From: Clostridia bacterium
GTDB taxonomy: Bacteria; Bacillota; Clostridia; Oscillospirales; RGIG8002
Direction of reading: 5' to 3'
NCBI GenBank assembly: GCA_017620395.1
Contig: JAFZQJ010000032.1
Coordinates: forward strand, 21,594-85,593
Length of the DNA: 64,000 bases
Numbering within the stretch: position 1 is the stretch's first letter; each line of letters opens with the position of its first letter. The translations under genes were made by a program, and so were the position numbers. Below are positions 12,255-45,566 of the stretch, in pieces. The notes beneath the pieces are model-generated. The model did no database searches and was not told where the DNA came from. It saw only the letters and a program-made list of their open reading frames with translations.

Positions 12255-13400
12255 ATGATAACGGGAATCATAGCGGAATACGATCCTTTCCACAAGGGGC
12301 ACGCGTTCCTCGCCGCGAAGGCGCGGGAGGCGGGAGCCGGCTGCGTCGCCGCCGTCATGAGCGGCAACGTCACGCAGCGGGGCGAGTTCGCCTGCTTCGG
12401 CAAGCGCGAACGCGTCCGCGCCGCGCTGGAATGCGGGATAGACCTCTGCATCGAGCTGCCCGCGCCGTGGGCGTGCGCCTCCGCCGCGGACTTCGCGCGG
12501 GGCGGCGTTTCGCTGCTGCGCGCGTGCGGCGCGGACACGCTGCTTTTCGGCAGCGAAAGCGGCGACGCGGACGCGCTCAAACGCGCCGCCGAAGCGGTGC
12601 GCCGCGCCGACGGCGAGGCCGTCAGGAGCGCGGTAAGGCGCGGGCTGACCTACCCCGACGCGCTCGCGGAGAGCGTCGGCGGTGAGGCCGCTTCCCTGCT
12701 CGCAGGGCCGAACAACCTGCTCGGGATCGAATATATCAACGCCGCCGCGGAGCTCGCGCCGGATATGAGTATAACCACCGTCAGGCGCGCCGGCGCCGGA
12801 CACGGCGAAGGAGAAAACGGCTGCTTCGCTTCCGCCGGCTTCATACGCGGAAAAGCGCGCGAGGGAAAGGACTTCGCCCGCCTGCTCCCCGACGGCTGCG
12901 CGGAGATCTTCGCCGACTCGCCGGTCTCCGACCCCGCCGCCGCCGACCGCACGCTGCTGCACCTGCTTCGCGGAATGAGCGCGGAGGATATCGCCGAGAT
13001 CGACGGCGTGACCGAGGGGCTGGAAAACCGCGTAGTGAAAGCCGCCGCCGGGGCGGAACGCTTCGCCGACGTCGCGGCGCTGGTCAAGTCCAAGCGCTAC
13101 ACGCTGGCGCGTATACGCCGCCTACTGCTGCGCTGTCTGATCGGGATAAAGCGCGGGACGCTCCCGCCGCTGCCGCCCTACGTCCGCGTGCTCGGGCTGA
13201 ACGGGCGCGGCGCGCAGGCGCTGAACGCGATAAAGAAGACCGTTCCGCTGCTGACGAAGCCCGCGGACTTCGATAAGCTCGACGCCGACGGGCGGACGGT
13301 TTTCGCGTATGAGCTGAAAGCCGCGGATCTCTACGCGCTGACGCTCCCGCCCGCCCCCGCCGGCGCGGAGATGCGCTACACGCCCGTGGTGGTGAAATAG
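12255..13400 (+). CDS. tmcAL: tRNA(Met) cytidine acetate ligase (UPF0348/YlbM nucleotidyltransferase family)
   Basis: GIIAEYDPFHKGHAFL N-terminal HxGH-type motif and GNVTQRGE, with overall length typical of TmcAL. Confidence 0.7.
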   Translation: MITGIIAEYDPFHKGHAFLAAKAREAGAGCVAAVMSGNVTQRGEFACFGKRERVRAALECGIDLCIELPAPWACASAADFARGGVSLLRACGADTLLFGSESGDADALKRAAEAVRRADGEAVRSAVRRGLTYPDALAESVGGEAASLLAGPNNLLGIEYINAAAELAPDMSITTVRRAGAGHGEGENGCFASAGFIRGKAREGKDFARLLPDGCAEIFADSPVSDPAAADRTLLHLLRGMSAEDIAEIDGVTEGLENRVVKAAAGAERFADVAALVKSKRYTLARIRRLLLRCLIGIKRGTLPPLPPYVRVLGLNGRGAQALNAIKKTVPLLTKPADFDKLDADGRTVFAYELKAADLYALTLPPAPAGAEMRYTPVVVK

Positions 13401-13461
13401 CGTTCGCGAAGCGAACTCTTAACTGACGCGAAGCGTCATCAAAGTTCAAAACTCATAACTA
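13401..13461 (-). repeat. family C repeat (about 62 nt, two hairpins), copy abutting the tmcAL stop
   Basis: The reverse complement is about 85 % identical by eye to 18345-18407. Contains GTTCGC-gaa-GCGAAC and TGACGC-gaa-GCGTCA hairpins and AACTCATAACT words. Confidence 0.7.
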
Positions 13462-13468
13462 AAAGAAA

Positions 13469-13490
13469 CCCCCGCCCTTTCGGACGGGGG
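13469..13490 (+). terminator. GC hairpin, weak terminator candidate downstream of tmcAL
   Basis: CCCCCGCC-cttt-CGGACGGGGG followed by TTCAGTTT. Confidence 0.4.
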
Positions 13491-13558
13491 TTCAGTTTAG
13501 AGTTTAGAGCTATAATCGCCCTTCGGGCGAGTTATGAGTTTGTGCGCGTGAGGTGTGG

Positions 13559-13683: not shown

Positions 13684-16600
13684 TTACAGCGCTACGTTCT
13701 CGATGACGAGCACGCCGTCGTAGCCGACGGTGCCGACGTAGTTGACGGGCTCGCCGTCGATGAAGAACCAGACGCTCACGGTCTGGCCCGCGAGCTTCGC
13801 GCCGACGTAGGACGTGACGGTGACGGCGCCGTTATAGGCCTCGTCCGCCGCTTCGCCGCCGATCGTGAAGACGATGGTCTTCAGCAGCACGAGCCTGGTC
13901 ATTCCGCTGTCGTCCTTCTTGGAGGCGCGGAGCAGCGCGAGGTACGCGCTCTGCGAATAGGCTATGTCGGTCAGCTCGATCTCGACGTTCTGCGCGAACT
14001 CGGCGTCGAAGGTCAGGCCGCTCGCGGTATCCTCGATCGACTGCGGCTCGAAGGGCGCGGGATCGACGACGACGGCGAGGCGGGTCGTGAAGCCCTCGTA
14101 CAGATCGGCGTAGATGCCGGTCGGGGTGAAGGTCAGCTCGAAGGAGCTGCCGCTCTGCGCGGAGGTCGGCTGCGCGGCGGGAGTTGCCCACGCCCAGACG
14201 CCTTCGATATCGCCGGTGTCGCCGCCGGTCAGGGTCGCTTCCGCGAGAGTCTGCGGATACGTGACGTGAGCGGCGGTCGGGAGCGTATAGTTTTTGATAA
14301 CGCCCTTGCCGATAAGGCCGGTGAAGTCGCTCGTGACGGCGTCGTTCGCCTCGGCGCTGTAAAGTTCCGCGCGGACGGACTTGCCGATCTCGGCGGCGGT
14401 CAGCGTGTAGGTCTCGCCGGTGCCGAGCAGGTCGCCGTCTTCGTTATACCATCTGACGACCGCGTCGGTGATGAAGGCCGGGACGTCGATCGCGGCGGCG
14501 GTCAGCGTTTCGCCGTACTTCTCGACGCCGCTGATCGTGATCTGCGTGTTGGCGTCGAAGACGAAGAGCGCCTTGTAATCCGCTTCCGCGCCGAGCAGCG
14601 TCGTGTAGTTGGTGACGAGCGTCTGCTGCTCGGGAGTCAGAGCGTTGTAGCCCGCTCTCGCGGCGTCGATCTTCGCCTTCTGATCGGCGAGGACTTCGGT
14701 CACGGGACCGATGGCGTCGATCGCCGCGATGACCGCGTCGAGCGCCTCGTCGTGAGCGACGACCACGGTAACAAGCACCGCGTCGGTGTCGTTATGGTTC
14801 GCGTCGCCCGCGACCTTGTACCAGACGTAATAGGTATCGGGGTCGGTCGCCTCGGGGATGGAATCGCCGAAGGTTCCGGGCGCCGCGGCGGTGCCGAGCG
14901 CGTACTGCATCGTGCCGCCGACGGCTTCGCCGGTGACGGCCAGGAGCGCGTGGGCGGTTCCGTCGAAGGTCCATTCGATCGCGGTGACGGTCGCGGCGGA
15001 GGAGGCCGCCTTGCCGACGGAAACGGTCACGTTGACGTGCTCGACGACGTTGTAGTTATCGGTATCGTTCGGGGTGAACTTCGCCTTGAAGACGTTGCTG
15101 CCGGCGTTGCCGACGGGGGTCGTCAGGTCGGCTTCCCAGGTCCAGCCGTCGGGCAGCGAAACGCTGCTGAGCGCGTCGCCGTAGGTAGCGGTCAGACCTG
15201 TAGGCGCAGTGTATGTCGGGTCAGCCTTTGCTACCGTGAACTTCCAGCTTGAATCATACAGAACAGCAGAAGCTGCGTAGTAGTTGTCGCCTTCGTTTAC
15301 CGTAATTCCAACATAGTAGGTGCCAGCGTTTTTCGCATAATCAACCTCGTTTGTGCGTGCTGCATCGCTGTAATACCTCACTGTCGCGTCGCCCATGCCG
15401 TCAACGCCGTCCTGAGGAATAACAGTAGCCATTTTGTTATTTCCGTTATAATTCAGATTATCCGGTTCGCTGAAAATAAAGTCATTGGCGGTCGGGTTTG
15501 CCTTCGCGATCGTGTATACAACGTAAGCGGTCGCGTTTTGAATCTTGATCTCCGCCCAGTAGGTGCCCGCGCCGGCGGGCGAGGGGAGCGGCAGGCCGTC
15601 CTTCAGAATTTCCATGCCGTCTATCTTGGTATTGTAATACTGAATGGCATTCTCGGAAACCGAAAGACCGGTGGCGGCGTTGAACGCGTCAACTCCCTCA
15701 AGCGTCGCGCTCGCGCTCTCGGCGCCGCCGTAGGTGGTCAGCGCGGGAGCATGGATGACTATGAACGCGCCGTTGGAATGATATTCACAGCCATTGTGTG
15801 AGCACGTGGCGATGATAGTTTCGTTCAATCCCGCATAGCTGAAGTCGTGTCCCGTCGCGGGCGACGTTTCAACGTTTGGTTTTGTCTGCGTGGTAAATCC
15901 GTCTTTGGTGAAGGTCGCCGTATAGGTCGCGAGTTCCGCAGTCGTGCAGGTCGCCGCAGCGGTTACCTGGCTTGTGGTGTCAACGGTCTCGGAAACTTGT
16001 TTTCCGCAGATTACGCAGCTGTGCGACGCCGTCACCGTGCTGTTGTCACCGCTCCAGGTGTAAGTCGCTTCGCCCCACGTATGGTTCTGATGATCCGATT
16101 CCGCGTTGCATCTGCTGCAGTGCCTCCAATGTTCGGTTTCGTTGGAGCTGTACGGCACGTTTTCGTAGTTGTGTCCGAGCGCCGGTCCCGTTTGAACGCC
16201 GGATTTTACTTGCTGGACAAATCCGTCTTTGGTGAAGTTCGCAGTATAGGTCGTGCGTTCCGGCTCCGTGCAGTTCGCCCCGCTTACCGAGGCGGTGGTG
16301 TTAACGGTCTCGGAAACTTGTTTTCCGCACTGTGTGCAGCCGTGCGACGCCGTCACCGTGCTGTTGTTATCACCCCAAACGTAGAGCGCGCTGCCCCACG
16401 TATGGTTCTGTTTCTCCGAATCCTCGCTGCATCTGGCGCAAACTTTCCAATGCTGGGTATCGTCGGAGCTGTACGCCACGTTTTCGTAGTTGTGTCCGAG
16501 AGCCTGGATGACCCAACTGTTTTCCGCGATCTCGGTCTCGCCGTTCTCGTCGGAGAAATACTTGTTGCAGTCCTGGCAGTACCAGTAAGCGCTGTTGCCC

Positions 16601-18036
16601 GCGATCGTGCAGCCCGCATCCTCCGCAGCGTGAGGAGTCAGACTGTGCACGTGGGCGGGCGCGGCGGCTTTCGAGCAGACGTATACGACATCGCTACCGG
16701 AGTTATAATAATCCTTTATTACAGCAAGGTCAGCGTCAAAATCCGATTGAATAGTGAGTTTGAATACGTCTTTGTCCGTACACTCATCCGTAAAGAAAGC
16801 TATCATGCGAGCACTGCCGCTGACGATATAAACGATGTCAATATACTTTGAAGGGGCAACGCCGTTGGTGACGGCGTCCCAGTTGTCGTAAACCCACGCC
16901 TTCGCCTCATCAAAGGTGCATTCGCCGATGCTGTCGGCAGCGACCTGATCCCCGTCCGTTACAATTGTGAAGCTGACGGCCGGCGCGGCGGCTTTCGAGC
17001 AGATGTATACGACATCGGCACCGTAGTTATAATAATTCTTTATTGCAGCAAGGTCAGCGTTTGAATCCGATTGAATATCGGCTTGGAATACGTCTTTGTT
17101 CGTACAATCAGCCGTAGAGAAACCTATCAAGCGAGCACTGCCGTTGACGATATAAAGGATGTCAATATACTTTGTAGAGTCAACGCCGTTGGTGACGGCG
17201 TCCCAGTTGTCGTAAACCCACGCCTTCGCCTCATCAAAGGTGCATTCGCCGATGTTGTCAGCGGCGATCTGGTCCGCGTTCGTTACAATTGTGAAGGTAA
17301 CGGCCGGCGCGGCGGTCGGTGTGCAGAGCCAAACGTCGTCGGAATAATTATAGCACAGCGTCAAATCATCAATACCGACTGCCGTCGCCGCAGACGCCGG
17401 CTTGGTCTCAAACTCATCTTTCCCGAGCTCCGGGTAGAAATTGAAAGCTTTTAAGTCGGCCCCGTCATAGTATGCAAACCAAAAGCTTGCGGCCGTAGTG
17501 CTCGCAACGGTGTTCCAGTTCGCGAGGGCCCACGCTTTCGCGTCGTCAAAGGTGCAGGCGCCGATGTTGTCGGCCGTGATATCGCTCGCGTCGGTCACCT
17601 TCGTGAAGGAAACGGTGGAAGTCGCGGGCGCGGCAGCGGGTGTGCAAATGAAAACAGAGTGACCGTCAGCAAACCAACCTTGTAAGTCACTGATTGAGGT
17701 CGTATCAGTAAGATTATCGAAATACTGCAGAAAACTTTGTTCATCTATACCTTGATACACGTGCACATAATACAATTCGCCGGTGTTTGAATAGAAAGCG
17801 ATCTCTGCATGAAAAGAGTTCTCGAGTAAATCACCCCAGTTTGCAAGCGCCCATGCCTTCGCTTCATCAGCTGTGCATGTGCCGATGTTTTCAGCGGTAA
17901 TCTGGCTTGCGTCGGTTACCTTTGTGAAGGAAACAGTGTCCGCGCTCGCTATCAGGCCTATGCCCGGCATGAGCGACAGGAGCATCGCGACGCTGAGCAG
18001 GACGCTCAGCAGTTTTTTCCAACTTTTGTTTATCAT
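13684..18036 (-). CDS. very large secreted repeat protein (1450 aa), adhesin-like
   Basis: Signal peptide (LLSVLLSVAMLLSLMPGIGLIASA) and GGGAGG RBS. Four copies of an N-terminal module of about 108 aa, two Cys/His-rich modules of about 107 aa (GHNYENVxYSS..HW..C.RC..QNHTWG), MBG-like YYVGITVNEGDNYY segments and Ig-like C-terminal regions. No LPXTG, SLH or dockerin seen. Confidence 0.85.
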   Translation of the reverse strand: MINKSWKKLLSVLLSVAMLLSLMPGIGLIASADTVSFTKVTDASQITAENIGTCTADEAKAWALANWGDLLENSFHAEIAFYSNTGELYYVHVYQGIDEQSFLQYFDNLTDTTSISDLQGWFADGHSVFICTPAAAPATSTVSFTKVTDASDITADNIGACTFDDAKAWALANWNTVASTTAASFWFAYYDGADLKAFNFYPELGKDEFETKPASAATAVGIDDLTLCYNYSDDVWLCTPTAAPAVTFTIVTNADQIAADNIGECTFDEAKAWVYDNWDAVTNGVDSTKYIDILYIVNGSARLIGFSTADCTNKDVFQADIQSDSNADLAAIKNYYNYGADVVYICSKAAAPAVSFTIVTDGDQVAADSIGECTFDEAKAWVYDNWDAVTNGVAPSKYIDIVYIVSGSARMIAFFTDECTDKDVFKLTIQSDFDADLAVIKDYYNSGSDVVYVCSKAAAPAHVHSLTPHAAEDAGCTIAGNSAYWYCQDCNKYFSDENGETEIAENSWVIQALGHNYENVAYSSDDTQHWKVCARCSEDSEKQNHTWGSALYVWGDNNSTVTASHGCTQCGKQVSETVNTTASVSGANCTEPERTTYTANFTKDGFVQQVKSGVQTGPALGHNYENVPYSSNETEHWRHCSRCNAESDHQNHTWGEATYTWSGDNSTVTASHSCVICGKQVSETVDTTSQVTAAATCTTAELATYTATFTKDGFTTQTKPNVETSPATGHDFSYAGLNETIIATCSHNGCEYHSNGAFIVIHAPALTTYGGAESASATLEGVDAFNAATGLSVSENAIQYYNTKIDGMEILKDGLPLPSPAGAGTYWAEIKIQNATAYVVYTIAKANPTANDFIFSEPDNLNYNGNNKMATVIPQDGVDGMGDATVRYYSDAARTNEVDYAKNAGTYYVGITVNEGDNYYAASAVLYDSSWKFTVAKADPTYTAPTGLTATYGDALSSVSLPDGWTWEADLTTPVGNAGSNVFKAKFTPNDTDNYNVVEHVNVTVSVGKAASSAATVTAIEWTFDGTAHALLAVTGEAVGGTMQYALGTAAAPGTFGDSIPEATDPDTYYVWYKVAGDANHNDTDAVLVTVVVAHDEALDAVIAAIDAIGPVTEVLADQKAKIDAARAGYNALTPEQQTLVTNYTTLLGAEADYKALFVFDANTQITISGVEKYGETLTAAAIDVPAFITDAVVRWYNEDGDLLGTGETYTLTAAEIGKSVRAELYSAEANDAVTSDFTGLIGKGVIKNYTLPTAAHVTYPQTLAEATLTGGDTGDIEGVWAWATPAAQPTSAQSGSSFELTFTPTGIYADLYEGFTTRLAVVVDPAPFEPQSIEDTASGLTFDAEFAQNVEIELTDIAYSQSAYLALLRASKKDDSGMTRLVLLKTIVFTIGGEAADEAYNGAVTVTSYVGAKLAGQTVSVWFFIDGEPVNYVGTVGYDGVLVIENVAL
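15856..16503 (-). repeat. tandem duplication (2 x about 324 bp) encoding the Cys/His-rich modules of the 1450-aa protein
   Basis: aa 512-618 and 619-727 both begin ALGHNYENV and share HW..C.RC..QNHTWG...STVTASH.C..CGKQVSETV. Confidence 0.8.
16654..17301 (-). repeat. near-identical tandem repeat (2 x 324 bp) in the 5' part of the 1450-aa protein gene
   Basis: aa 246-353 and 354-461 are about 85-90 % identical at DNA level by eye. Two more diverged copies lie at 17302-17937. Confidence 0.85.
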
Positions 18037-18272
18037 AATTCTACCTCCCTGCCTCGCGGCAGTTAAAATTCGTCTTTACGACGGTTTTTTGACGTGATTA
18101 TGCCTTTTTGACTTTTAGGTCATAAACAGATAATTTATTGTATCACGCCCTTTGCAAAAACGCAAGAGCGAATGAGGGGTTTTTTTGGGATTTTTACATA
18201 TTTTATTATCGGGAGGAGGGCGGCGGCGAGGTGCCGGCGCAAACTCTTAACTCGCGCGAAGCGCGATCATAA

Positions 18273-18310
18273 CTCTAAACTCTAAACTCTAAACTCTGAA
18301 CTCTAAACTC
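18273..18310 (+). repeat. heptanucleotide microsatellite (CTCTAAA) x 5.4
   Basis: Units at 18273, 18280, 18287, 18294 (CTCTGAA) and 18301. Only about 2.5 units at 18473-18490 and 2 inverted units at 13494-13508. Confidence 0.8.
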
Positions 18311-18341
18311 AAAAACCCCGTCCGGATCGGACGGGGTTTTC
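18311..18341. terminator. bidirectional intrinsic terminator
   Basis: AAAAA-CCCCGTCCG-gat-CGGACGGGG-TTTT. Confidence 0.7.
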
Positions 18342-18344
18342 TTT

Positions 18345-18407
18345 GAGTTATGAGTTTAGAACTATGATGACGCCTGCGGCGTCAGTTATGAGTTCGCTTC
18401 GCGAACG
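18345..18407 (+). repeat. family C repeat, copy abutting the 24-nt duplicate of the malic-enzyme 3' end
   Basis: GAGTTATGAGTTTAGAACTATGATGACGCC-tgc-GGCGTCAGTTATGAGTTCGCTTCGCGAACG. Confidence 0.7.
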
Positions 18408-18430
18408 TTGGCCGCGATCACCGCCGCGGC
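18407..18430. repeat. 24-nt direct duplicate of the 3' end of the malic-enzyme CDS
   Basis: GTTGGCCGCGATCACCGCCGCGGC is identical at 18407-18430 and 18939-18962, the latter encoding AAAVIAAN at the C-terminus. Confidence 0.85.
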
Positions 18431-18439
18431 ACAGCCGCC

Positions 18440-18522
18440 GCAAACTCTTAACTCGCGCGAAGCGCGATCATAACTCTAAACTCTAAACTCAAAACCCCGT
18501 CCGAGATTTCGGACGGGGTTTT
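18440..18522 (+). repeat. duplicated block, copy 2, including a bidirectional terminator hairpin (18491-18522)
   Basis: Same sequence as 18239-18341 with fewer heptamers. AAAA-CCCCGTCCGA-gatt-TCGGACGGGG-TTTT. Confidence 0.8.
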
Positions 18523-31004: not shown

Positions 31005-33755
31005 TTACTTATGCGAGGACGACAGCACCAGCACGGGCAGCGTCCAGAAGAGCGCGTAGATGAGTATTTTCCACGCTTCTATCGCCGACGGCGTCGACGC
31101 GAACGAGAAGACCGCGACGAAGATCAGGCCTATCACCGCCGAGGCGATCAGCGCCGCTATGTTGAACGCAACGCTGCCCTTCAGCTTGGAGGCGCAGACC
31201 GCCGCTTCGGGCAGGGCGCAGCAGTCGTCGCCGACGACGACGCCGGCGGGAAGGCTCCGCGCCTTCTTATACCTGCGCTCGAGACGGTCGAGCGCGCGGG
31301 CGCTGATGACCTTCACGGTCGCGTTGCTGAGCTTCATGCGGTTGGAAAGTATTTCTTTGGTAACGTTGGTGTCCTTCGTCGCGATGAGCAGCGTCAGACC
31401 GGAGTCCTCGGCGCGGCGCAGGCGGCGCTTGGCAACGTCCGCGATGCCGTAGGTCACGACGTACATCGCGCACAGCTGCATATCGGCAGCGAGGTAGAAG
31501 ACGTGGCGGTCGCCTCCGGAAACCTTCGATTCGTAGGCGGAGGACGGCACGGGGATCTGGTACGCCTTCATAAAGTCGCGGCTGCCGAGCAGAAGCTCCC
31601 TGCCCTGACTGCGGCAGACGACGCCCATTTCGTCGACGTATTCGATGCTGTCTATCTCGCGCAGGATGGACTTATCCGCGACGCTTCCTTCGAAGACCTT
31701 GCCGAGCGCTCCGCCGGCGGCGTTCAGCACGCTGACGGTGTCGGCGATGACGCCGTCCATCGGCGCGTTGTTGAAAAGGCTCATGCCGTGCAGGATTATC
31801 GATTTATCCGGGAAAACGTCGGTGTCTGAAACAACGATGCCGTTCGCCTCCGCGATGGTAACCGCGGCGTCGAAGTTGAGTATCGCGCCTCCCTTGCGAT
31901 TGAGGCGGCGGTTTATGCGCGTCAGCGGCAGAACGGTGACGAAAATGCTCATAAGAGGCGTTCCCGCACAAAGCGCGGCGGTGAACACCGAGAGCGCGAC
32001 GCCAACGGACGCTCCCCTCCACACAGCGGAAACGAGAGCTATCAGCAACGCGGCGGCGGCCGCTCCGATGAAGAGTTTTCCGACGGAATTATCGGCGTCG
32101 CTCTCCTTTGAGGAGGCTTCGACCACGCCGACTACTGCGTCGGTGCGGTGCGGCGCGCAGAGGCGGGCTTCGCCGGAGATCTGTCCTCCGGAAACGTCCT
32201 CCGCGAGCTCCTCGTCGTCCACCATTACGGCGGCGGCAAGCTGCTTTCGCTCGCTGACGAATTTCATATTGCCGCGTATGTGGCGCACCATCTGAAGGTC
32301 GCCGAGCCGTATGAACAGCAGCATCACGGCGGGCAGGAAGTTATATACTCCGACCGTTCCCTCGGATATATAAGAAGGATTTATCATAAGGGCGATATTC
32401 TGTATCACCGCGACGGCGGTGCATATCACCGCCGCGGATTCCGCACGGAATTTCAGCGTCCTGATTTGCTCGAACGCACGCTTTACGAACGGAATGCTGA
32501 ACGCAAGCGTAAGCATACTGACCGCGGCGCTGATGAAGAGATAGACGACGGCGATGTCGCGCTCGGTCGCCGCGGATTCGGATTTCAGCGCGAAGACGTC
32601 GATGATAAGCAGCAGCAGTGCGCACGCTCCGAGGAAAACGGATTTCAGCACGCCGTCGCTGCGGCGGGCGCGGAGCTCCTCCTCGACAAGGTAGTAGTCG
32701 TCCGGCTCGCCGTGGTATTCGGCCTCCTCGTCCGGCGCGGTCTCCTCCGGCTCGGGCATGTTGTAAGTCTTGCGGACGTTTTCTCTGATATTGTTCTCAA
32801 CGCTCTCCTTGAAGCCCGCGGCGACGGCGTCGGCGTCGGCCTTCTCCGCCGGTGGCTCCTTGGCGTTTGTCATCACGTTCACCGGCCCGGCGCCTTCGAA
32901 GAAGAGCTGATCCGGCTCGGCCTCGCTGTTGCGCGGCCTGCGGGGAGCGCGTTTCTTCGGCGTCTCCTCCTTGACCGGCGGCGCGAATATCACGGTGCCG
33001 CCCTCGACCTTCGGCTCACCGCCTTCCTCGACGGCGACTGCGTATTCCTCGGGCTGCGCCTCGATCTCTATGGTGCTGAAAAGCTTCAGACTGCGCGTAT
33101 CCTCGAGCGACGGGCGCTTTTTCTTCACAGACGGCACGCGGACGGTCGCGGCGGTTTCCGGCTCCGGAATCGGCGCGGACGCGGGCTTTTCTTCCGCCGC
33201 GGGCGCGGCTTTCGCCTCCGCCGCGGGCGCGGGACTGTCATTCCGAGGAGCCGCCGGCGACGGGGAATCCCCTTCCGCTTGCAGACGCTCCGCTTGAGGT
33301 GCGGGATCCTTCGCTTCGCTCAGGATGACAGGCGTTTCCGCGGGCGCTTTCACGGGCTCGGGGGCGGGCTTCGCTTCGGCAGGGATGACCGGCGCGAACG
33401 AAAGCTCCGGTTCCGGCGCATGCGCGAGTCTCGCGCTGTCATTCCGAGAAGGATGCGAAGCCTCCGACGAGGAATCCCCATCCTTTTGCAGAGATTCTGC
33501 GGAAGGCGTGGGATCCTTCACTTCGTTCAGGATGACAGGCGCCTTAGCGGGTTCGGGCTCAGGCTTGGGTTCGGGTTTCAGCTCGGGTTTGGGCTCAGGC
33601 TTGGGTTCGGGCTTCGCGAACGGCACGGCCTTATCGCCCTCCACCTCGCGCAGGATATCGTCCAGCGAGAAGGTGCGGTCGACAGGCACTCCCGAATAGT
33701 CCTTCGAGGGCACGCCTAACTTTTCAAGATATTCCCTTTCTCTTTCCTTGCTCAT
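31005..33755 (-). CDS. P-type-ATPase homologue with degenerate catalytic motifs and a roughly 370-aa Pro/Glu/Ala-rich N-terminal extension
   Basis: GGAGGG RBS. The ATG overlaps the rlmB stop (ATGA). The C-terminal half aligns by eye with P1B ATPases (CAGTPL for CPC, GIVVSDTDVF for VVFDKTGTLT, ATKDTN for TGDN, VVVGDDCCALPEAA for MVGDGINDAPALA). No TGES motif. Confidence 0.6.
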   Translation of the reverse strand: MSKEREREYLEKLGVPSKDYSGVPVDRTFSLDDILREVEGDKAVPFAKPEPKPEPKPELKPEPKPEPEPAKAPVILNEVKDPTPSAESLQKDGDSSSEASHPSRNDSARLAHAPEPELSFAPVIPAEAKPAPEPVKAPAETPVILSEAKDPAPQAERLQAEGDSPSPAAPRNDSPAPAAEAKAAPAAEEKPASAPIPEPETAATVRVPSVKKKRPSLEDTRSLKLFSTIEIEAQPEEYAVAVEEGGEPKVEGGTVIFAPPVKEETPKKRAPRRPRNSEAEPDQLFFEGAGPVNVMTNAKEPPAEKADADAVAAGFKESVENNIRENVRKTYNMPEPEETAPDEEAEYHGEPDDYYLVEEELRARRSDGVLKSVFLGACALLLLIIDVFALKSESAATERDIAVVYLFISAAVSMLTLAFSIPFVKRAFEQIRTLKFRAESAAVICTAVAVIQNIALMINPSYISEGTVGVYNFLPAVMLLFIRLGDLQMVRHIRGNMKFVSERKQLAAAVMVDDEELAEDVSGGQISGEARLCAPHRTDAVVGVVEASSKESDADNSVGKLFIGAAAAALLIALVSAVWRGASVGVALSVFTAALCAGTPLMSIFVTVLPLTRINRRLNRKGGAILNFDAAVTIAEANGIVVSDTDVFPDKSIILHGMSLFNNAPMDGVIADTVSVLNAAGGALGKVFEGSVADKSILREIDSIEYVDEMGVVCRSQGRELLLGSRDFMKAYQIPVPSSAYESKVSGGDRHVFYLAADMQLCAMYVVTYGIADVAKRRLRRAEDSGLTLLIATKDTNVTKEILSNRMKLSNATVKVISARALDRLERRYKKARSLPAGVVVGDDCCALPEAAVCASKLKGSVAFNIAALIASAVIGLIFVAVFSFASTPSAIEAWKILIYALFWTLPVLVLSSSHK
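33234..33330. repeat. long family B-type element (about 97 nt, 13-nt terminal inverted repeats) inside CDS 31005-33755
   Basis: CTGTCATTCCGAG ... GGGATCCTTCGCTTCGCTCAGGATGACAG. Translated in frame as PVILSEAKDPAPQAERLQAEGDSPSPAAPRNDS. Confidence 0.75.
33436..33538. repeat. second long family B-type element inside CDS 31005-33755
   Basis: CTGTCATTCCGAG ... GGGATCCTTCACTTCGTTCAGGATGACAG. Translated as PVILNEVKDPTPSAESLQKDGDSSSEASHPSRNDS. Confidence 0.75.
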
Positions 33756-35207: not shown

Positions 35208-35325
35208 CGCCCTTTTCTCTGCGCTTTCGCGGCGCGGAAAATAATGCTTTATTTTTCTTTTCTCTTGTGCTATAATGTAAGAAGTGGAAGATGCATAATC
35301 ACGCAAACGAAGGGAAGTGTGCGCT

Positions 35326-36090
35326 TTGGGCAGAATAATAGCGGTCGCAAACCAGAAGGGCGGCGTCGGCAAGACGACCACCGCCGTCAATCTTGCCGCC
35401 GCGCTTGCGCTTTGCGGGAAAAAGACTCTGCTTGCGGACATCGACCCGCAGGGGCACGCCACGGTCAGCTGCGGCATCGGCAAAAAGGAACTCGCAGCAA
35501 CCGTTTACGACGTGCTGATAGGCGGAGCGAAAGCCGCCGACGCCATAATCTGTACGGAAGAGGGCCGTCCGGACCTGCTGCCCGCCACCGTCGACCTTGC
35601 CGGTGCGGAGCTCGAGCTGGCAGCTCTTGAAAAACGCGAATCGCGCCTGCGCGACGCGCTCAATCTCATCCGCGGCGATTACGACTATATTATCATCGAT
35701 TCTCCCCCGGCGCTCGGGCTGCTGAACCTCAACGGGCTCGTTGCGGCGGACGCCGTTCTCGTGCCGCTGCAGACGGAGTTCTTCGCGCTGGACGGACTTT
35801 CTCAACTCATGGCGACGATACGCCTCGTGCGGCGCGGGCTCAACCCTTCGCTCGACCTCGAGGGCGTGCTGCTGACGATGTACAACAGCCAGCTCAACCT
35901 CACCAACCAGGTCGCCGCGGAGGTCAAAAAGTTCTTCCCGCGCAAGGTGTTCAAAACCGTCATTCCGCGCACCGTGCGGCTCAGCGAAGCACCGGGCTTC
36001 GGCAAGAACATATTTGAGTACGACCGCAACTCCAAGGGCGCGCTCGCCTATATGGAGCTTGCGAAAGAGATAATCGCGAACGACAGGTAG
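35326..36090 (+). CDS. soj: ParA/Soj chromosome-partitioning ATPase
   Basis: Deviant Walker A IAVANQKGGVGKTTT. The start is uncertain between TTG 35326 (gives the canonical MGRIIAV N-terminus) and GTG 35317 (ORF track). Confidence 0.85.
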   Translation: MGRIIAVANQKGGVGKTTTAVNLAAALALCGKKTLLADIDPQGHATVSCGIGKKELAATVYDVLIGGAKAADAIICTEEGRPDLLPATVDLAGAELELAALEKRESRLRDALNLIRGDYDYIIIDSPPALGLLNLNGLVAADAVLVPLQTEFFALDGLSQLMATIRLVRRGLNPSLDLEGVLLTMYNSQLNLTNQVAAEVKKFFPRKVFKTVIPRTVRLSEAPGFGKNIFEYDRNSKGALAYMELAKEIIANDR

Positions 36091-36141
36091 CGATATGCGC
36101 GTTATGCGCACGATGTGTCCCTTCGGGACGAGAGTTCGGCT
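36091..36141 (+). repeat. 51-nt direct repeat, left copy (starts 1 nt after the soj stop)
   Basis: CGATATGCGCGTTATGCGCACGATGTGTCCCTTCGGGACGAGAGTTCGGCT. 50/51 identical to 36699-36749. Confidence 0.9.
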
Positions 36142-36270
36142 AGCCGAACTCTCACGCGAGCGTCAGCGAGCGTATATCGTATTTGCAAAGCAAATATATC
36201 GCATCGCGAAGGCGATATATCGCGTTTGCGACGCAAACATATCGCATCGCCGAAGGCGATATATCCCGGA
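36142..36270. repeat. array of family E modules (ATATCGC word + 6-bp-stem hairpin, period about 22-26 nt)
   Basis: Hairpins GAGTTCGGC/GCCGAACTC, ATTTGC/GCAAAT, ATCGC/GCGAT, GTTTGC/GCAAAC and ATCGCC/GGCGAT, separated by (T)ATATCG(C/T). Confidence 0.75.
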
Positions 36271-36282
36271 AAGGATAATTGA

Positions 36283-36627
36283 ATGAGCGCAAAAACAATT
36301 AAAGATCTCTCCGTCGAACTAACGGTTGAAATAACCGAACTTTGCGAAACGGTAAAAGCTAAAGCCGTATATGCAAATCAGCTGTTGCGTTCCTGTTCTT
36401 CAATCGGCGCTAACGTGCACGAAGCGAAATACGCTCATAGCCGCGCCGACTTCATCAACAAACTTGAAATCGCCCTGAAAGAATGCCACGAAACTGAGTA
36501 CTGGATTGAAATACTGCATAATACTCATTCGTTTTCTGATGAGCAGTATAAGAAAACATCTGAAAAATGCGGCTTAATACGCCGCAAACTTATAGCATCC
36601 ATCACAACGGCAAAGAAAAACGCATAA
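36283..36627 (+). CDS. four-helix-bundle protein (23S rRNA intervening-sequence protein family)
   Basis: 114 aa with the LLRSCSSIGANVHEAKYAHSRADFINKLEIALKECHETEYWIEIL core typical of the family. About 40 % GC by eye against more than 60 % in the neighbours. AAGGA RBS. Confidence 0.8.
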   Translation: MSAKTIKDLSVELTVEITELCETVKAKAVYANQLLRSCSSIGANVHEAKYAHSRADFINKLEIALKECHETEYWIEILHNTHSFSDEQYKKTSEKCGLIRRKLIASITTAKKNA

Positions 36628-36698
36628 GCGATATAAATCCCTATGGGATTAGCGATATAGATTCCTTCGGAATCTACGATATGTTTGCTTCGCAAACG
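36628..36698. repeat. array of family E modules in the opposite word orientation (GCGATAT + hairpin)
   Basis: AATCCC/GGGATT, GATTCC/GGAATC and GTTTGC/GCAAAC hairpins separated by (A/G)CGATAT. Confidence 0.75.
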
Positions 36699-36749
36699 CG
36701 ATATGCGCATTATGCGCACGATGTGTCCCTTCGGGACGAGAGTTCGGCT
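36699..36749 (+). repeat. 51-nt direct repeat, right copy (27 nt upstream of the spo0J start)
   Basis: CGATATGCGCATTATGCGCACGATGTGTCCCTTCGGGACGAGAGTTCGGCT. Confidence 0.9.
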
Positions 36750-36775
36750 TCGCCGAACGCAGAAAGGAAAAACGT

Positions 36776-37636
36776 ATGGCTAAACTTACCGGACTCGGCA
36801 AAGGGCTCGACGCCCTCTTCGCCGAAAACACAGTTGACGAAAACGGCTATGAGCTGGTGAATATTGACGACATATCCCCCAACCGCGAACAGCCCCGCCG
36901 CGCCTTTGACGAGGAATCCCTCGCGGAGCTCGCTGATTCGATAAAACAGCGCGGGATACTCCAGCCGCTCATCATTCAGCCGACCGCGCTCGACGGCTAC
37001 GTCATAATCGCGGGCGAACGCCGCTGGCGTGCCGCTCGTATGGCGGGGCTCGCGAAGGTGCCGGCGATAATCCGCCGCCCCGACGCGCACGAGGCCGCCG
37101 TCATCGCTCTCATCGAAAACCTCCAGCGCGAAGACCTCAATCCGGTCGAGACCGCCGAGGGCTGCCGCAGGCTGATGGACGACCACGGACTGACTCAGGA
37201 GGCGCTCGCCGCCGAGCTCGGCAAACCCAGAAGCGCGATCGCGAACCTGCTTCGCATACTCGCGCTGCCCGCGGACGTGATCGAGCTCGTCCGCACGGAC
37301 AAGCTTTCGCTCGGTCACGCGAAGGCGCTCGCCGCGCTGCCCGCGGAAGCCGCTTCGGCGCTCGCTTCGCGCTGCGCAGCGGAGGGACTTTCCGTCCGCG
37401 CCTGCGAAGAGCTGGCGAAGGCCGCCGGCAAGCCCGCGAAAAAGTCTGCTCCCAAGCCCGTTTCGCGCACCGCGCTTATAGTAGAATCCGAAAAAGTACT
37501 GAAGGAAAAGCTCGGCCGCAGGGTAACCATAAGCGGCAGCGATAAAAAAGGCAAGCTCACCGTCGACTACTGCGGCGAGGGCGATCTGATCGACCTCGTC
37601 AACCGCCTTTCCGGGAACGGAGATGATCGCAGATGA
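36776..37636 (+). CDS. spo0J: ParB/Spo0J chromosome-partitioning protein
   Basis: [25 protein letters not shown] and [10 protein letters not shown] motifs. Confidence 0.9.
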
Positions 37637-43547: not shown

Positions 43548-45566
43548 ATGAAAAAACGCTTACTTTCCGTGCTGCTCGCGTTTGCGCTCGTGCTCGGGTT
43601 GCTTCCGCTGACGGCGATCACCGCCGCTGCGGCGAGCGACCTCGACAACGCGCTGAACGTTTCCGGCGGCAACCTGAAATTCAGCAGCAGCGGCAGCTAT
43701 CCCTGGACCGCCGTCAACGACGGCACGCGCGTTTACGCGACGAGCGGCAACGCGGGCGTCGCGAGCTCTGAATCCGTAATGACTCTTTCCGTCTCCCCGA
43801 CGAGCGCCACCGCCGTCTCCTTCGAATTCATGGCGTGGGGCGAGACCTACAAATCCCAGCCCTGCGACGTATGCACCTTCTACATCGACAACGTGGCGCA
43901 GTTCAGCTACGGCGCCCTCTGCAACAACTGGGAAACCTATACCGCGCCGCTTTCCGCGGGCGCGCACACGCTCAAATGGGAGTATAAAAAGGACAGCTCC
44001 GAAGACCCGGTGCTCGACTTCTTCGCCGTCGACAACGTCAAGATCGGCATCGACCGCTATCCCCTCTACGCGAAGGGAACGCAAGTGACGACCGCCAACT
44101 GCCGCGACGTTCTCGGCGACGGCAAGCTTTCCTTCGATCCGAGCAGCAACACCCTCACCGTCTCCGGCACCGAATCCGGCCTGCAGGCGGTACTTATCAG
44201 CGAACTCGACGGTCTTACCGTCAAGACGACGGCCGACTCTACGTTTATGAACATTGGTTCCGGTCCCGCCGTTTCGCTGAAGGGCAATACCACCTTCGTC
44301 AGCGAAGGCGGCAGACTTTCGCTGATGGCAATGAGCGGTAACGCTCTTGCCTTTATCGGCAGCAATACCACGCTGTATTTCTACGCCGCCGATTTCTACG
44401 CGAAGGGCACGACCGGCGGTATCGTTTCCACCGGCTCGGGCAACAGGCTCAACGTCAAGGCTTCGGCCGTCCGCGCCGAAGCCGAAAGCGGCAACGCCGC
44501 GGTCGCAGGTTTCGGCGGCGGCATCACTTATTCCGACTGCAACCTTACCACCCCGAATAACGCCCAGATATCCAACGGCCGCATCAACAGCGGCAGCTCT
44601 GCCGCCATTCAGGCCGTTTTCACTCTCAACAACGCGACGCTCTACGGCATCTGCACCGCCGATTTCGGCGGAAGCAACAGCGATAAGTGGTTAAAATTCG
44701 AAAGCACCTCGAGCAAGACCGTTACCGCGCTCGGCGCCGCGCCCGACAACTCCTACGCAGTCGCGTACGCCTACGGAACGATCTACGGCATTACCAACGC
44801 CGACGACAACGGCAACGGCGGCGGCATACTGTGGACGGCGCCTTTCGGCAATCCGGGCAACTACACGCTCGGCAAGCAGGTATACAACGGCGACGGTACG
44901 CTGCGCTCGATGACCTACGACTATACGGGCAATAAGCTCTTTGTGCTCATAAACTCCGGCACCTCCTCGTCGCTTTATTCGCTTAATCCCTCCACCGCGG
45001 CGCTGACCGAAATAGGCGCTCTCGGCCAGAACTTCTACGGCATCTGCGCTGACGAAAACGGCACGATCTACGGCATAAACAGCCTCGGCATGCTCTACAC
45101 TATAAACGGCAAAACCGCCGAAACGACGTTCCTTCTTGCCACCGGCTACGCCTGCAAATACGTTCAGGATATCGCCTATGACTTCGACACCGGCGACATC
45201 TACTGGGCGCGCGTCTACTCGACGAGCGACGGCGAGCATGGGCTCTGCCGCATAAACAAGACCACCGGCGAAACCTTCGTTCTGAATAAGATCGGCCCCT
45301 CCGGCGCCGAGATCGTCGGTATGTTCGCCGTTCCGGCGAACGAGCCCGGCGCACCGCAGTCAAAGAAGGGCGATATGGACAAGGACGGCGAGATCACGGT
45401 CAACGACGCGCTGAAGGCGCTGCGTATCGCCGCGAAGCTTGCCGCAGCGTCCGATGAGGATATGCTTATAGGCGACGTCGACGGCGACGGCGATATCACC
45501 GTCAACGACGCGCTGAAGATCCTCCGCGTCGCCGCGAAGCTCGCCGACGAAAGCAGTCTGGGATAA
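43548..45566 (+). CDS. secreted protein with N-terminal jelly-roll-like domain, YG-repeat (beta-propeller-like) region and C-terminal dockerin
   Basis: Signal peptide (LLSVLLAFALVLGLLPLTAITAAAA). Recurrent xYGI/YGIC turns. Terminal duplicated loops DMDKDGEITVNDALKALR and DVDGDGDITVNDALKILR (about 45360-45563). Confidence 0.75.
   Translation: MKKRLLSVLLAFALVLGLLPLTAITAAAASDLDNALNVSGGNLKFSSSGSYPWTAVNDGTRVYATSGNAGVASSESVMTLSVSPTSATAVSFEFMAWGETYKSQPCDVCTFYIDNVAQFSYGALCNNWETYTAPLSAGAHTLKWEYKKDSSEDPVLDFFAVDNVKIGIDRYPLYAKGTQVTTANCRDVLGDGKLSFDPSSNTLTVSGTESGLQAVLISELDGLTVKTTADSTFMNIGSGPAVSLKGNTTFVSEGGRLSLMAMSGNALAFIGSNTTLYFYAADFYAKGTTGGIVSTGSGNRLNVKASAVRAEAESGNAAVAGFGGGITYSDCNLTTPNNAQISNGRINSGSSAAIQAVFTLNNATLYGICTADFGGSNSDKWLKFESTSSKTVTALGAAPDNSYAVAYAYGTIYGITNADDNGNGGGILWTAPFGNPGNYTLGKQVYNGDGTLRSMTYDYTGNKLFVLINSGTSSSLYSLNPSTAALTEIGALGQNFYGICADENGTIYGINSLGMLYTINGKTAETTFLLATGYACKYVQDIAYDFDTGDIYWARVYSTSDGEHGLCRINKTTGETFVLNKIGPSGAEIVGMFAVPANEPGAPQSKKGDMDKDGEITVNDALKALRIAAKLAAASDEDMLIGDVDGDGDITVNDALKILRVAAKLADESSLG

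Follow-up and report, generated by a model that had tools for sequence, protein, structure and literature searches.

Proteins of the four-helix-bundle family PF05635 are known from several settings. In Coxiella, a 28-bp stem of terminal inverted repeats (TIRs) encloses the S23p-type open reading frame (ORF) of a 23S rRNA intervening sequence (IVS) and is cut by RNase III (PMC4990558). Further PF05635 genes, which share the conserved motif GxxRxxxSxxxNxxE (PMC3936711), were earlier reported inside cas loci and rRNA genes (PMC3936711; 10.1101/2024.02.27.582315). In the ribonucleoprotein (RNP) of a diversity-generating retroelement (DGR), all five protomers of the accessory protein Avd contact one stem-loop, with flipped-out bases in the crevices between protomers (10.1101/2023.10.23.563531). 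Two classes of short repeats also matter here. Gut-1 is an orphan small RNA (sRNA) candidate from human gut metagenomes for which no gene association is listed (Weinberg et al. 2010, PMC2864571), and the short tandemly repeated repetitive sequences (STRRs) of cyanobacteria are hairpin-forming 7-bp repeats of unknown function between operon genes (PMC2670836). Here we examine a 64,000-nt stretch of contig JAFZQJ010000032.1 of a Clostridia bacterium (hereafter the window). In the window, a PF05635 gene bracketed by inverted arrays of a heptamer word and short hairpins lies between the partition genes soj (parA) and spo0J (parB). We consider it very probable that this gene and its arrays make up a mobile cassette.

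The gap between soj and spo0J measures 685 nt and holds a single ORF, for which a public annotation already exists at NCBI (MBO4934955.1). The guanine-plus-cytosine (GC) content of this cassette gene is 0.42, against 0.61 window-wide, and the gene is the 345-nt stretch of lowest GC in the window. At third codon positions (GC3) the gene has a value of 0.435, compared with 0.78 in soj and 0.75 in spo0J. A first-pass annotation, made from the letters alone, had described one 114-aa four-helix-bundle gene filling a 685-nt gap, of about 40 % GC against more than 60 % in its neighbours, and had taken it for a foreign acquisition. The ORF list, Pfam and NCBIfam bear out the first point and the measured composition the second; the foreign origin is supported by a GC3 of 0.44 against 0.75-0.78 and by the identities across host lineages given below. 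The same annotation saw the GCGATAT word in opposite orientation on the two sides of the gene, which agrees with the five words that we read on each side. It had also reported a 51-nt direct repeat with 50 identical positions. The repeat is there, but its length needs correction: it spans 52 nt with 51 of the 52 positions identical, and in sister strains all 63 of 63 positions agree. Removal of one repeat copy was expected to restore a spacer of about 80 nt, with an empty site in relatives, and such a site was found.

The first base of the direct repeat is the G of the soj TAG stop codon. The two copies start 608 nt apart, their match extends to about 61 nt if one indel is allowed, and 0 of 100 shuffles yielded a comparable match. 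The left copy contains a GCGATAT-hairpin module, an ACGATGT-hairpin module, and GAGA with a hairpin arm. The words of the reverse array, upstream of the gene, are ATATCGT, three times ATATCGC, and ATATCCC (at 36174, 36196, 36217, 36239 and 36261), whereas the forward array, downstream of the gene, carries GCGATAT, ACGATAT or ACGATGT in the opposite orientation (at 36628, 36652, 36676, 36698 and 36718). Two arms within the arrays form a 28-nt inverted repeat, 96% complementary, and are predicted to pair into a 27-bp helix that encloses the ORF; the minimum-free-energy fold contains 62 pairs spanning the gene, this helix included. GCGATAT is over-represented in the window (35 occurrences versus 12.6 expected). 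Its remaining clusters, at 19.4 kb and 45.4 kb, are coding sequence, and within the window hairpin arrays of this word are confined to the soj-spo0J gap.

Relatives sharing the gene order SpoU-SpoU-ParA-ParB-p150-RimP-NusA were compared at the same spacer. It measures 12-15 nt in L094 and L096, is a bare 15 nt in L151, contains one hairpin within 38 nt in L090 and L091, and contains a single word-hairpin module within 58 nt in L093. In L092 it measures 130 nt and holds four GCGATAT modules plus the terminal hairpin, without a gene; the forward-array modules of the window match those of this gene-less array. The empty alleles L148, L149 and L150 come from three independent assemblies of close relatives, the metagenome-assembled genome (MAG) GCA_017438525.1 among them. 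Their 76-nt gap runs from soj-TAG through a single repeat copy and the same ribosome-binding site (RBS) to spo0J, and their repeat is identical to the right-hand copy of the window at 62 of the 63 positions.

Compared with the empty allele, the occupied one thus contains two additions: about 545 nt of unique DNA and a second copy of the 63-nt spacer. Since the left and right copies agree at 63 of 63 positions in sister strains, the duplication took in all of this spacer, starting at the stop codon and stopping just short of the RBS. With its two modules, this resident spacer is already an array of the same word family. The last of these modules, together with GAGA, recurs in an element of an unrelated Oscillospiraceae MAG (L015), and we therefore read the resident spacer as a solo array of the cassette's own family. 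Judged from these alleles, the direct repeat is the duplicated resident spacer rather than an end of the element. The assembled alleles show an insertion into the soj-spo0J spacer with duplication of the 63-nt resident spacer in a lineage of rumen Clostridia. L092 alone would suggest that modules m1-m3, downstream of the gene, are ancestral; the true empty allele in L148-L150 refutes this reading. A tree of five flanking proteins did not settle in which sequence gains and losses took place among L090, L092 and the window. Coordinates of all features of the locus are given in Table 1.

Table 1. Features of the soj-spo0J locus in the window.
Feature	Position	Strand	Remarks
soj/parA	35317-36090	+	upstream host gene, intact; Pfam AAA_31 (2e-61) and CbiA/ParA
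Direct repeat, left copy	36090-36141	+	52 nt; ancestrally 63 nt, about 36090-36152
Palindrome GAGAGTTCGGCT/AGCCGAACTCTC	36130-36153		perfect, 24 nt, loop-less; this strain only
Unique inserted DNA	36153-36697	+	about 545 nt: centre, reverse array, RBS, gene, forward modules 1-3
Reverse array	36174-36267	+	five words with four 14-15-nt hairpins between them; ends 15 nt 5' of ATG
5' arm of predicted gene-enclosing helix	36217-36244	+	pairs with 36677-36704
Likely RBS of inserted gene, AAAGGAT	36270-36276	+	assigned by reading the sequence
Four-helix-bundle protein gene (23S-rRNA-IVS-protein/Avd-like family)	36283-36627	+	114 aa
Forward array	36628-36760	+	words each followed by a hairpin; then GAGA and terminal hairpin GTTCGGC-TTC-GCCGAAC
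3' arm of predicted gene-enclosing helix	36677-36704	+	pairs with 36217-36244
Direct repeat, right copy	36698-36749	+	ancestrally 36698-36760
Native spo0J RBS region AGAAAGGAAAAACGT	36761-36775	+	identical in empty alleles
spo0J/parB	36776-37636	+	downstream host gene, intact, full Pfam match

The occupied alleles also indicate when the cassette spread. Both soj and spo0J of L003 and L004/L009 depart from the window at 5-10 of every 100 positions, as far as the edges of the cassette, whereas the 608-nt cassette interior (36153-36760) shows only 2-3 differences in total, where about 45 would be expected at the rate of the flanks. Expressed as identity between lineages, this is about 99.5% for the interior against 89-93% for the flanks; the coding sequence of the four-helix-bundle protein is 99.7% identical across the occupied lineages. 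A near-identical interior within diverged flanks implies that at least three host lineages acquired the cassette, or exchanged it with one another, long after they had split. In all three it occupies the same site with sharp boundaries, which we propose is because the conserved 63-nt spacer serves as a landing pad. Recurrence of the pattern in independent samples and studies makes a chimeric assembly unlikely. The exact cassette protein was found on 18 contigs, all in the soj/spo0J context, and a metagenome scan for further copies returned one 100% match, on one and the same contig.

Linkage between gene and arrays was studied in Akkermansia and in Clostridia of rumen and gut, at 80 loci from genomes and 47 from metagenomes, using a strict, word-agnostic array detector and a zone from -350 to +250 nt around the gene. 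Arrays occurred in this zone at 52 of the 80 loci, at a density of 1.53 per kb versus 0.042 per kb elsewhere, a 36-fold difference (p = 2e-57). The word changes with the lineage (GCGATAT, TCGATAT, GTGATAT, GTGAAAT, TGAATTG, GAGATTT, AGTTATA or ACGAAAT), and the word of the gene-proximal upstream array always complements that of the distal or downstream array. The resulting architectures are circular permutations of one another: [fwd][rev]-gene, [rev]-gene-[fwd] and [fwd][rev]-gene-[fwd]. Of 117 loci, 14 have direct repeats of 47-359 nt on either side of the gene and 29 have inverted repeats of 25-153 nt there. At 77 of the 80 loci the GC content of the gene is below that of its flanks. The first-pass annotation had named, as the case that would speak against it, that the repeat prove to be an ordinary multi-copy intergenic repeat unlinked to such genes. 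The modules do belong to a multi-copy intergenic class, of the Gut-1 type, but this class is tightly linked to these genes.

The gene-plus-array unit has no conserved partner gene and occurs in at least 41 upstream and at least 59 downstream contexts. Crude ORF calls, with co-directional neighbours in 44 cases versus 30, were uninformative on orientation. As far as sequence comparison goes, these loci show that gene and arrays move as one unit into dozens of unrelated sites, in several phyla and often inside operons. At 13 loci (L010, L012, L028, L029, L030, L031, L033, L044, L047, L049, L052, L071 and L076) an rlmD/rumA-type RNA uracil-5 methyltransferase gene lies directly upstream of the cassette. 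These 13 differ in their words (GCGATAT, TCGATAT, TGAATTG) and in their downstream genes, and the clustering reflects either a favoured target site or an old insertion with subsequent concerted drift of the words.

The Akkermansia copies carry TIRs of about 100 nt that are 88-99% identical, compared with only a 28-nt inverted repeat and the 63-nt duplication in the window copy. In L066, L067, L060 and L078 the stop codon of the preceding gene marks the start of these TIRs, whose two outer ends bear YTAA-like tetranucleotides (TTAA|...|TTAA in L066) that could represent a 4-bp target duplication. Gene-enclosing duplexes of 91-97 bp are predicted in L078, L066 and L074. Decayed copies were also seen: L026:4900-5150 retains a full forward-plus-reverse unit, an RBS and an ATG, followed by a terminator where the gene has been deleted; L076:4001-4340 has a frameshifted gene; and L052:5257-5413 is a second, fragmentary copy next to its own arrays.

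The most complex arrangement was observed in L079:1160-3726, from the Akkermansiaceae SIG73. It consists of five tandem units of about 240 nt, each built as five forward modules, a central hairpin and five reverse modules. Units 2 and 3 are separated by the four-helix-bundle gene, and two tyrosine-recombinase-like ORFs flank the cluster. The last unit is split by a 780-nt insert with inverted repeats of its own and an IS200-like Y1 transposase ORF, which scored 51.4 bits against NF033573 (cut-off 55). In L146, a faecal contig labelled 'UNVERIFIED Bacteriophage sp.' (MT835815.1), the unit follows a tRNA gene and a terminator. A near-consensus promoter, TTTACA-17 nt-TGaTATATT, lies directly 5' of the gene (L146:1440-1500), with the GTGATAT word as its extended -10 element. 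Such a word-built promoter was seen in L146 only.

The arrays resemble the Rfam motif Gut-1 (RF01706), whose consensus consists of three hairpins separated by GUGAAAU, the same architecture as in the window with a different word. The motif aligned over its full length to the reverse array (36191-36269, minus strand, 34.7 bits, E 6e-5) and to the forward array (36650-36729, plus strand, 32.5 bits), both scores being below the gathering score of 50 bits; related loci scored above it, at 65.4 and 50.9 bits. The flanks of the Gut-1 alignment already contain an inverted array that was not annotated. Moreover, the seed BAAZ01025322.1 is 99.3% identical to L146:1186-1492, a segment that ends 9 nt 5' of the GTG start of a homologous four-helix-bundle gene. 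By this alignment, the seed is the upstream array of such a gene, and its contig ended too early to reveal it. Likewise, on shared architecture, we assign the cassette arrays to the Gut-1 motif class.

In the arrays as a whole, 40.5% of the intervals between words contain a perfect stem of at least 5 bp, compared with 1.9% after shuffling. The array period has a median of 22 nt, and 601 of the 689 interval sequences are distinct. Of 1257 stem pairs, 1243 are Watson-Crick and only two are G.T, so that wobbles are almost absent on either strand. The loops of the reverse array (GCA, GAA, GTCA, GCAA) are exact complements of those of the forward array (TGC, TTC, TGAC, TTGC). Mirrored loops and Watson-Crick stems imply that the two arrays are true inverted copies, and that the functional strand cannot be read from wobble pairs. 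The palindrome at 36130-36153 derives, by strain comparison, from the terminal hairpin of the spacer through three coordinated changes, at 36140, 36142 and 36150, and looks like the product of template switching, a 'quasipalindrome correction' event. The Gut-1 word GTGAAAT is similar to a parS half-site, GTGAAAC. Because the word of the window is GCGATAT and the contexts of the unit are diverse, we treat the soj/spo0J location as coincidental with respect to parS.

Assignment of the cassette protein to the IVS/Avd family, as proposed by the first-pass annotation, is agreed upon by Pfam, NCBIfam, the structure 2RLD and Foldseek. The protein matches PF05635 (E 3.5e-22, 79.1 bits, cut-off 33.8) and TIGR02436 (87.7 bits, cut-off 24). 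Its AlphaFold (AF2) model shows four helices with a mean confidence (pLDDT) of 94.5. The closest structures are 2RLD (Bacteroides BT_0352; template-modelling (TM) score 0.87, 46% identity; phmmer against the PDB, E 9e-24) and 2GSC (Xanthomonas Xcc0516; TM 0.86), followed by phage Avd (4DWL; TM 0.80, 14% identity) and Avd within the DGR reverse transcriptase (RT) RNP (8UB7 and related entries). The 2RLD and 2GSC entries contain five chains each, and by analogy with them and with Avd the cassette protein is probably a pentameric barrel. Its isoelectric point (pI) is 8.3. The protein retains R36, S40, N44 and E47 of the family motif and has Q33 in place of the G; S40, N44 and E47 are invariant across 41 homologues.

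Comparison of the cassette ORF with its relatives gave non-synonymous differences per site (pN) of 0.11-0.23 against synonymous differences (pS) of 0.7-0.95. With pN far below pS, the ORF is under strong purifying selection. The PF05635-type family comprises 6,245 representatives at 50% identity (E <=1e-3). About 3,000 closer homologues were obtained, many of them from very short contigs. Many homologues (P0002, P0016, P0019, P0255-P0261 and others) are called at 150-175 aa with a match that begins only near residue 50-60; gene callers have probably extended these ORFs 5' through the stop-poor array.

More distant members of the family on plasmids have oriented word arrays beside the gene, without hairpins. 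The plasmid loci add four further phyla and, weakly, a fifth. In Treponema, about 40 tandem GTGAAAG-like words, with the complement CTCTCCG/CTTTCCG on both sides, lie between genes for a DMT transporter and a DUF4832 protein. Bernardetia has (TTAGTGA)x14 and TCACTAA between an O-methyltransferase gene and recF, Chondrinema CAGTGAA-type words and ACTGT between an RND adaptor and permease, and Planktothrix GATTTAC and TTGGGGA with ATCGTAA and CCCCAAT between genes for a helicase-domain protein and a hypothetical protein. In Monoglobus, AATTAGG and CCTAATT occur between HsdS and HsdR, in Anabaena, AGTAAAA and CTTTTTA between cas2 and cas1, and in Nostoc C052 the arrangement (TTCGTAA)x3-gene-(TTACGAA)x4 lies between two genes for hypothetical proteins. 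Chlorohelix, between helicase and methylase, has words downstream only. In most of these cases the gene is thus wedged between two genes of one system, in line with the earlier reports from cas loci and rRNA genes, and its GC content was below that of the flanks at nine of the nine plasmid loci. Within 45 kb of the Treponema plasmid, all three period-7 tracts lie within 178 nt of the gene, and the sole period-7 tract of the Bernardetia plasmid lies 46 nt from it.

As plasmid arrays lack hairpins, the oriented heptamer word is the constant partner of the gene, and hairpin spacers are an elaboration of Clostridia and Akkermansia. In Nostoc, small hairpin repeats are reportedly nested in tandem heptamers, an observation attributed to Elhai and co-workers in 2008. 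The gene-array unit is possibly tied to the cyanobacterial heptamer repeats; this possibility concerns a handful of plasmid loci in genomes where STRRs are abundant and their adjacency may be due to chance.

Taken as a whole, we favour, though with reserve, the view that the insert is a non-autonomous, selfish, IVS-like cassette whose mechanism combines integration, a stem and binding of its words by its protein. Integration and loss may take place by recombination or template switching between the array of the element and a resident solo array, which would yield the direct repeat. Recombination from repeat to repeat, or from word to word (36090 x 36628), would regenerate an allele of the L148 type or of the L092 type. 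The quasi-palindrome perfected in this strain suggests that template switching occurs here, which would also explain the near-perfect stems. The cassette gene is probably transcribed by read-through from soj; a scan from soj to the cassette gene found no sigma-70-like promoter site. Where the unit follows a terminator it needs a promoter of its own, such as the word-built one in L146.

In the transcript, the inverted arms may pair into a stem around the ORF, which RNase III could cleave like the stems of rRNA IVSs. We propose that, because the spacer is duplicated, soj would keep its 3' hairpins and spo0J its RBS context after processing, so that the operon would be unharmed. By analogy with Avd, the protein probably binds the words of the arrays beside its gene, either in RNA or in single-stranded DNA. 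A homologue of Avd that is encoded between arrays of lineage-co-varying, single-strand-capable words is most simply a binder of those words. Such a cognate pair of protein and repeat could then serve mobility, array maintenance or autoregulation.

A wider proposal, which we put forward only tentatively, would make the free-standing PF05635 proteins the missing trans-acting partner of oriented heptamer repeats across many phyla, each lineage with its own 7-nt word. It would cover Gut-1 in gut Clostridia and Akkermansia, the word tracts of Treponema and Bacteroidota, and the STRR-type repeats of cyanobacteria. A ring-shaped oligomer would act on single-stranded RNA or DNA, in a tiny mobile system that colonises operon spacers and rRNA helices and forms a partnership comparable to RAYT-REPIN on a non-enzymatic, Avd-like scaffold.

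Several observations weigh against the cassette model. The contigs are metagenome assemblies. Neither the exact-protein look-up nor the metagenome scan found a near-identical cassette at another site; with one word-matched copy at one site, transposition to new sites is read from diverged relatives. No insertion enzyme was identified in the tests of cassette and window. The family member on Nostoc pNPM1 is operon-packed and has no words. Arrays contain 3-5 words, with no sharp peak at five, which does not support 'five words for five protomers' as a rule. Pairing forward and reverse words by position gave one supportive pair (ATATCGT with ACGATGT) and conflicts at the words of 36217 versus 36676 and in L079 unit 2 (GCGAAAT versus ATTTCAC). 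Near-perfect stems with mirrored loops fit palindromes at the DNA level, or a constraint on both strands, better than a ligand read from one RNA strand. Finally, gene-less solo arrays exist in L092, at L037:7729-7801, in the Gut-1 seed BAAZ01000095, and in the window at 13.4 and 18.3 kb (13401-13545 and 18233-18520), the latter with terminator-like centres.

The last two points, together with the strain-specific conversion of a hairpin into a palindrome, which suggests template switching, would also suit a simpler explanation. The arrays might be ordinary palindromic repeats of the REP/BIME (repetitive extragenic palindrome/bacterial interspersed mosaic element) or STRR kind, which terminate transcription or stabilise mRNA and owe their spread to unrelated machinery, for instance a Y1/RAYT transposase or replication slippage. 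The gene would then be a functionally unlinked passenger, prone to land or persist in these repeats. An IS200-like Y1 ORF does sit in the L079 array cluster, and STRRs have been reported between operon genes with no protein partner (PMC2670836). We nevertheless regard this explanation as unlikely: a passenger gene would hardly have a 36-fold higher array density beside it, words that co-vary with its lineage across phyla and are mirrored on both its sides, period-7 tracts that in 45 kb flank it alone (Treponema, Bernardetia), or arrays that co-move with it into more than 40 contexts. In addition, the window contained no tyrosine-recombinase homologue, and tblastn with the L079 Y1 ORF gave no match in it. 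The element had been called recombinase-less from the start, a description that holds for the cassette and for the tests of the window; an enzyme encoded elsewhere in the genome may act in trans.

The position of family members between HsdS and HsdR, cas2 and cas1, and helicase and methylase, and within cas loci (PMC3936711), would be explained by a defence or addiction module similar to type III toxin-antitoxin systems, in which array RNA neutralises the protein or is processed by it. Short tandem repeats immediately 5' of a small gene, low GC and horizontal spread fit as well. However, the cassette protein matches none of the PADLOC anti-phage profiles (0 families at E up to 1), its fold is Avd-like rather than that of a ToxN/AbiQ-type RNase, the arrays are inverted across the gene instead of forming a single sense array, and many of the host operons are housekeeping ones (soj-spo0J, RND efflux, rlmD, rRNA); we consider such a module most improbable. 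A remnant of a DGR, that is, an orphan Avd gene left after loss of the RT and of the template and variable repeats (TR/VR), might be suspected from the TM score of 0.80 to Avd, the similarity to Avd in DGR RNPs, and the rank of PF05635 as the commonest accessory Pfam of DGRs (PMC10053308). We rejected this remnant, for which there is very little chance. As the first-pass annotation had stated, the 64-kb window is without RT motifs in any ORF of at least 150 aa and self-BLAST of the window found no TR/VR-like repeat pair near the cassette gene. Moreover, identity is 14% to Avd versus 46% to the free-standing 2RLD, the contexts number in the dozens without a conserved partner gene, and the insert is just 0.6 kb with clean empty alleles. 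It is hardly credible, finally, that the gene is a native, vertically inherited member of the partition operon, or that its apparent recent spread is an artefact of metagenome assembly. All 18 of the 18 exact-protein contigs in the soj/spo0J context, and the metagenomic nature of the data, could be quoted for it; empty alleles in close relatives (independent assemblies and one MAG), the foreign codon composition, the same sharp boundaries in separate samples and studies, and the occurrence of the gene family in unrelated contexts speak against it.

Other parts of the window were also noted. The gene-less composite units at 13401-13545, 18233-18410 and 18434-18520 use the heptamer AACTCTA/AACTCTT and its complement TAGAGTT/GAGTTAT, with tandem words and short hairpins on each side of a central GC hairpin; with its A-run and its T-run, this centre is reminiscent of a bidirectional terminator. 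The units bracket a 1450-aa ORF on the minus strand (13684-18036), one of them directly follows the stop codon of the ORF at 12255-13400, and no four-helix-bundle gene adjoins them. Tandem repeats of about 340 nt, 77-90% identical, occur within the 1450-aa ORF (15843-17315), suggesting, from sequence, a repeated domain of a large surface-type protein. Dockerin-like repeats (GDxDGDGxITVNDAL...) lie in two separate ORFs (45366-45546 and 4567-4742, about 71% DNA identity) and fit a host among the rumen Clostridia of the cellulosome type. A 916-aa ORF on the minus strand (31005-33755) has a low-complexity N-terminus rich in Pro, Glu, Lys and Ala (KPEP repeats) and a hydrophobic, multi-pass C-terminus, with no Pfam match on record.

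The PF05635 family, rRNA IVSs, Gut-1 and STRRs are each known singly. We did not find in the searchable literature the link between them: that PF05635 genes and oriented heptamer arrays form a mobile unit, that Gut-1 is one arm of it, and that it colonises spacers of mRNA operons with duplication of the target spacer. The association of PF05635 genes with heptamer arrays is widespread but undescribed. It would join three puzzles that have stood apart for 15-35 years, namely the role of the ORF in rRNA IVSs, the nature of Gut-1 and the heptamer repeats that litter some genomes. The soj-spo0J locus is a clean natural experiment, with occupied, empty and solo-array alleles in near-identical backgrounds, and this allele set shows the IVS-protein gene and the word-hairpin arrays as one mobile unit. 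If correct, our reading would explain how operons for CRISPR, restriction, efflux, partition and rRNA come to contain 'four helix bundle protein' genes without being disrupted. The locus also offers a simpler, free-standing system for nucleic-acid recognition by Avd-like barrels.

Compared with described systems, the cassette is not a DGR, an integron cassette or a RAYT-REP system: the defining features of each were looked for in the window and not found, and its flanks are arrays rather than a single attC. With RAYT-REP/REPIN systems and BIMEs it shares short palindromes with a conserved flanking word, in intergenic clusters of alternating orientation, as well as an associated gene flanked by inverted repeats and dispersed solo copies (PMC3116915). 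In contrast, its protein is a 114-aa helical bundle without HUH/Y1 motifs, and its hairpins vary from module to module so that only the 7-nt word is constant. The cassette protein has the four-helix-bundle fold in common with Avd (TM 0.80), and crystal structures of its homologues contain five chains per entry. Avd, a barrel described as positively charged, uses all five protomers to bind a structured RNA that is encoded beside its own gene, whereas the cassette protein (pI 8.3) is only 14% identical and has no RT, TR or VR, its neighbouring partner being a repeat array.

With Gut-1 the arrays share three or four short hairpins separated by a constant word of the GUGAAAU/GUGAUAU type; they differ in their word (GCGAUAU) and in their sub-threshold scores, and Gut-1 was described as a free-standing sRNA of the human gut without gene link, inverted partner array or function. 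Cyanobacterial STRRs are also 7-nt tandem words in inverted, hairpin-capable units between operon genes (PMC2670836), and on plasmids of Planktothrix, Anabaena and Nostoc, PF05635 genes are flanked by heptamer arrays, CCCCAAT among them, although the STRR literature examined proposes no protein partner. There is also a close likeness to the 23S rRNA IVSs of Leptospira and Coxiella with their S23p ORF. Both are elements of about 0.4-0.7 kb with a PF05635 gene inside a transcribed unit, and both have inverted repeats bracketing the ORF, with a stem of 28 bp in Coxiella and a predicted 27 bp here. Further shared features are a GC content below that of the host, sporadic distribution, inferred horizontal transfer and the absence of an encoded recombinase (PMC4990558). 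Unlike the IVSs, the cassette lies in the spacer of an mRNA operon rather than in an rRNA helix, its arms are made of heptamer words and hairpin modules, and it is accompanied by a 63-nt direct duplication of the target spacer; moreover, its ORF is under purifying selection, whereas the S23p protein of Coxiella was reported as apparently not made in vivo. On this comparison, we lean towards seeing the cassette as the operon-spacer counterpart of the 23S rRNA IVSs that carry the same ORF family.

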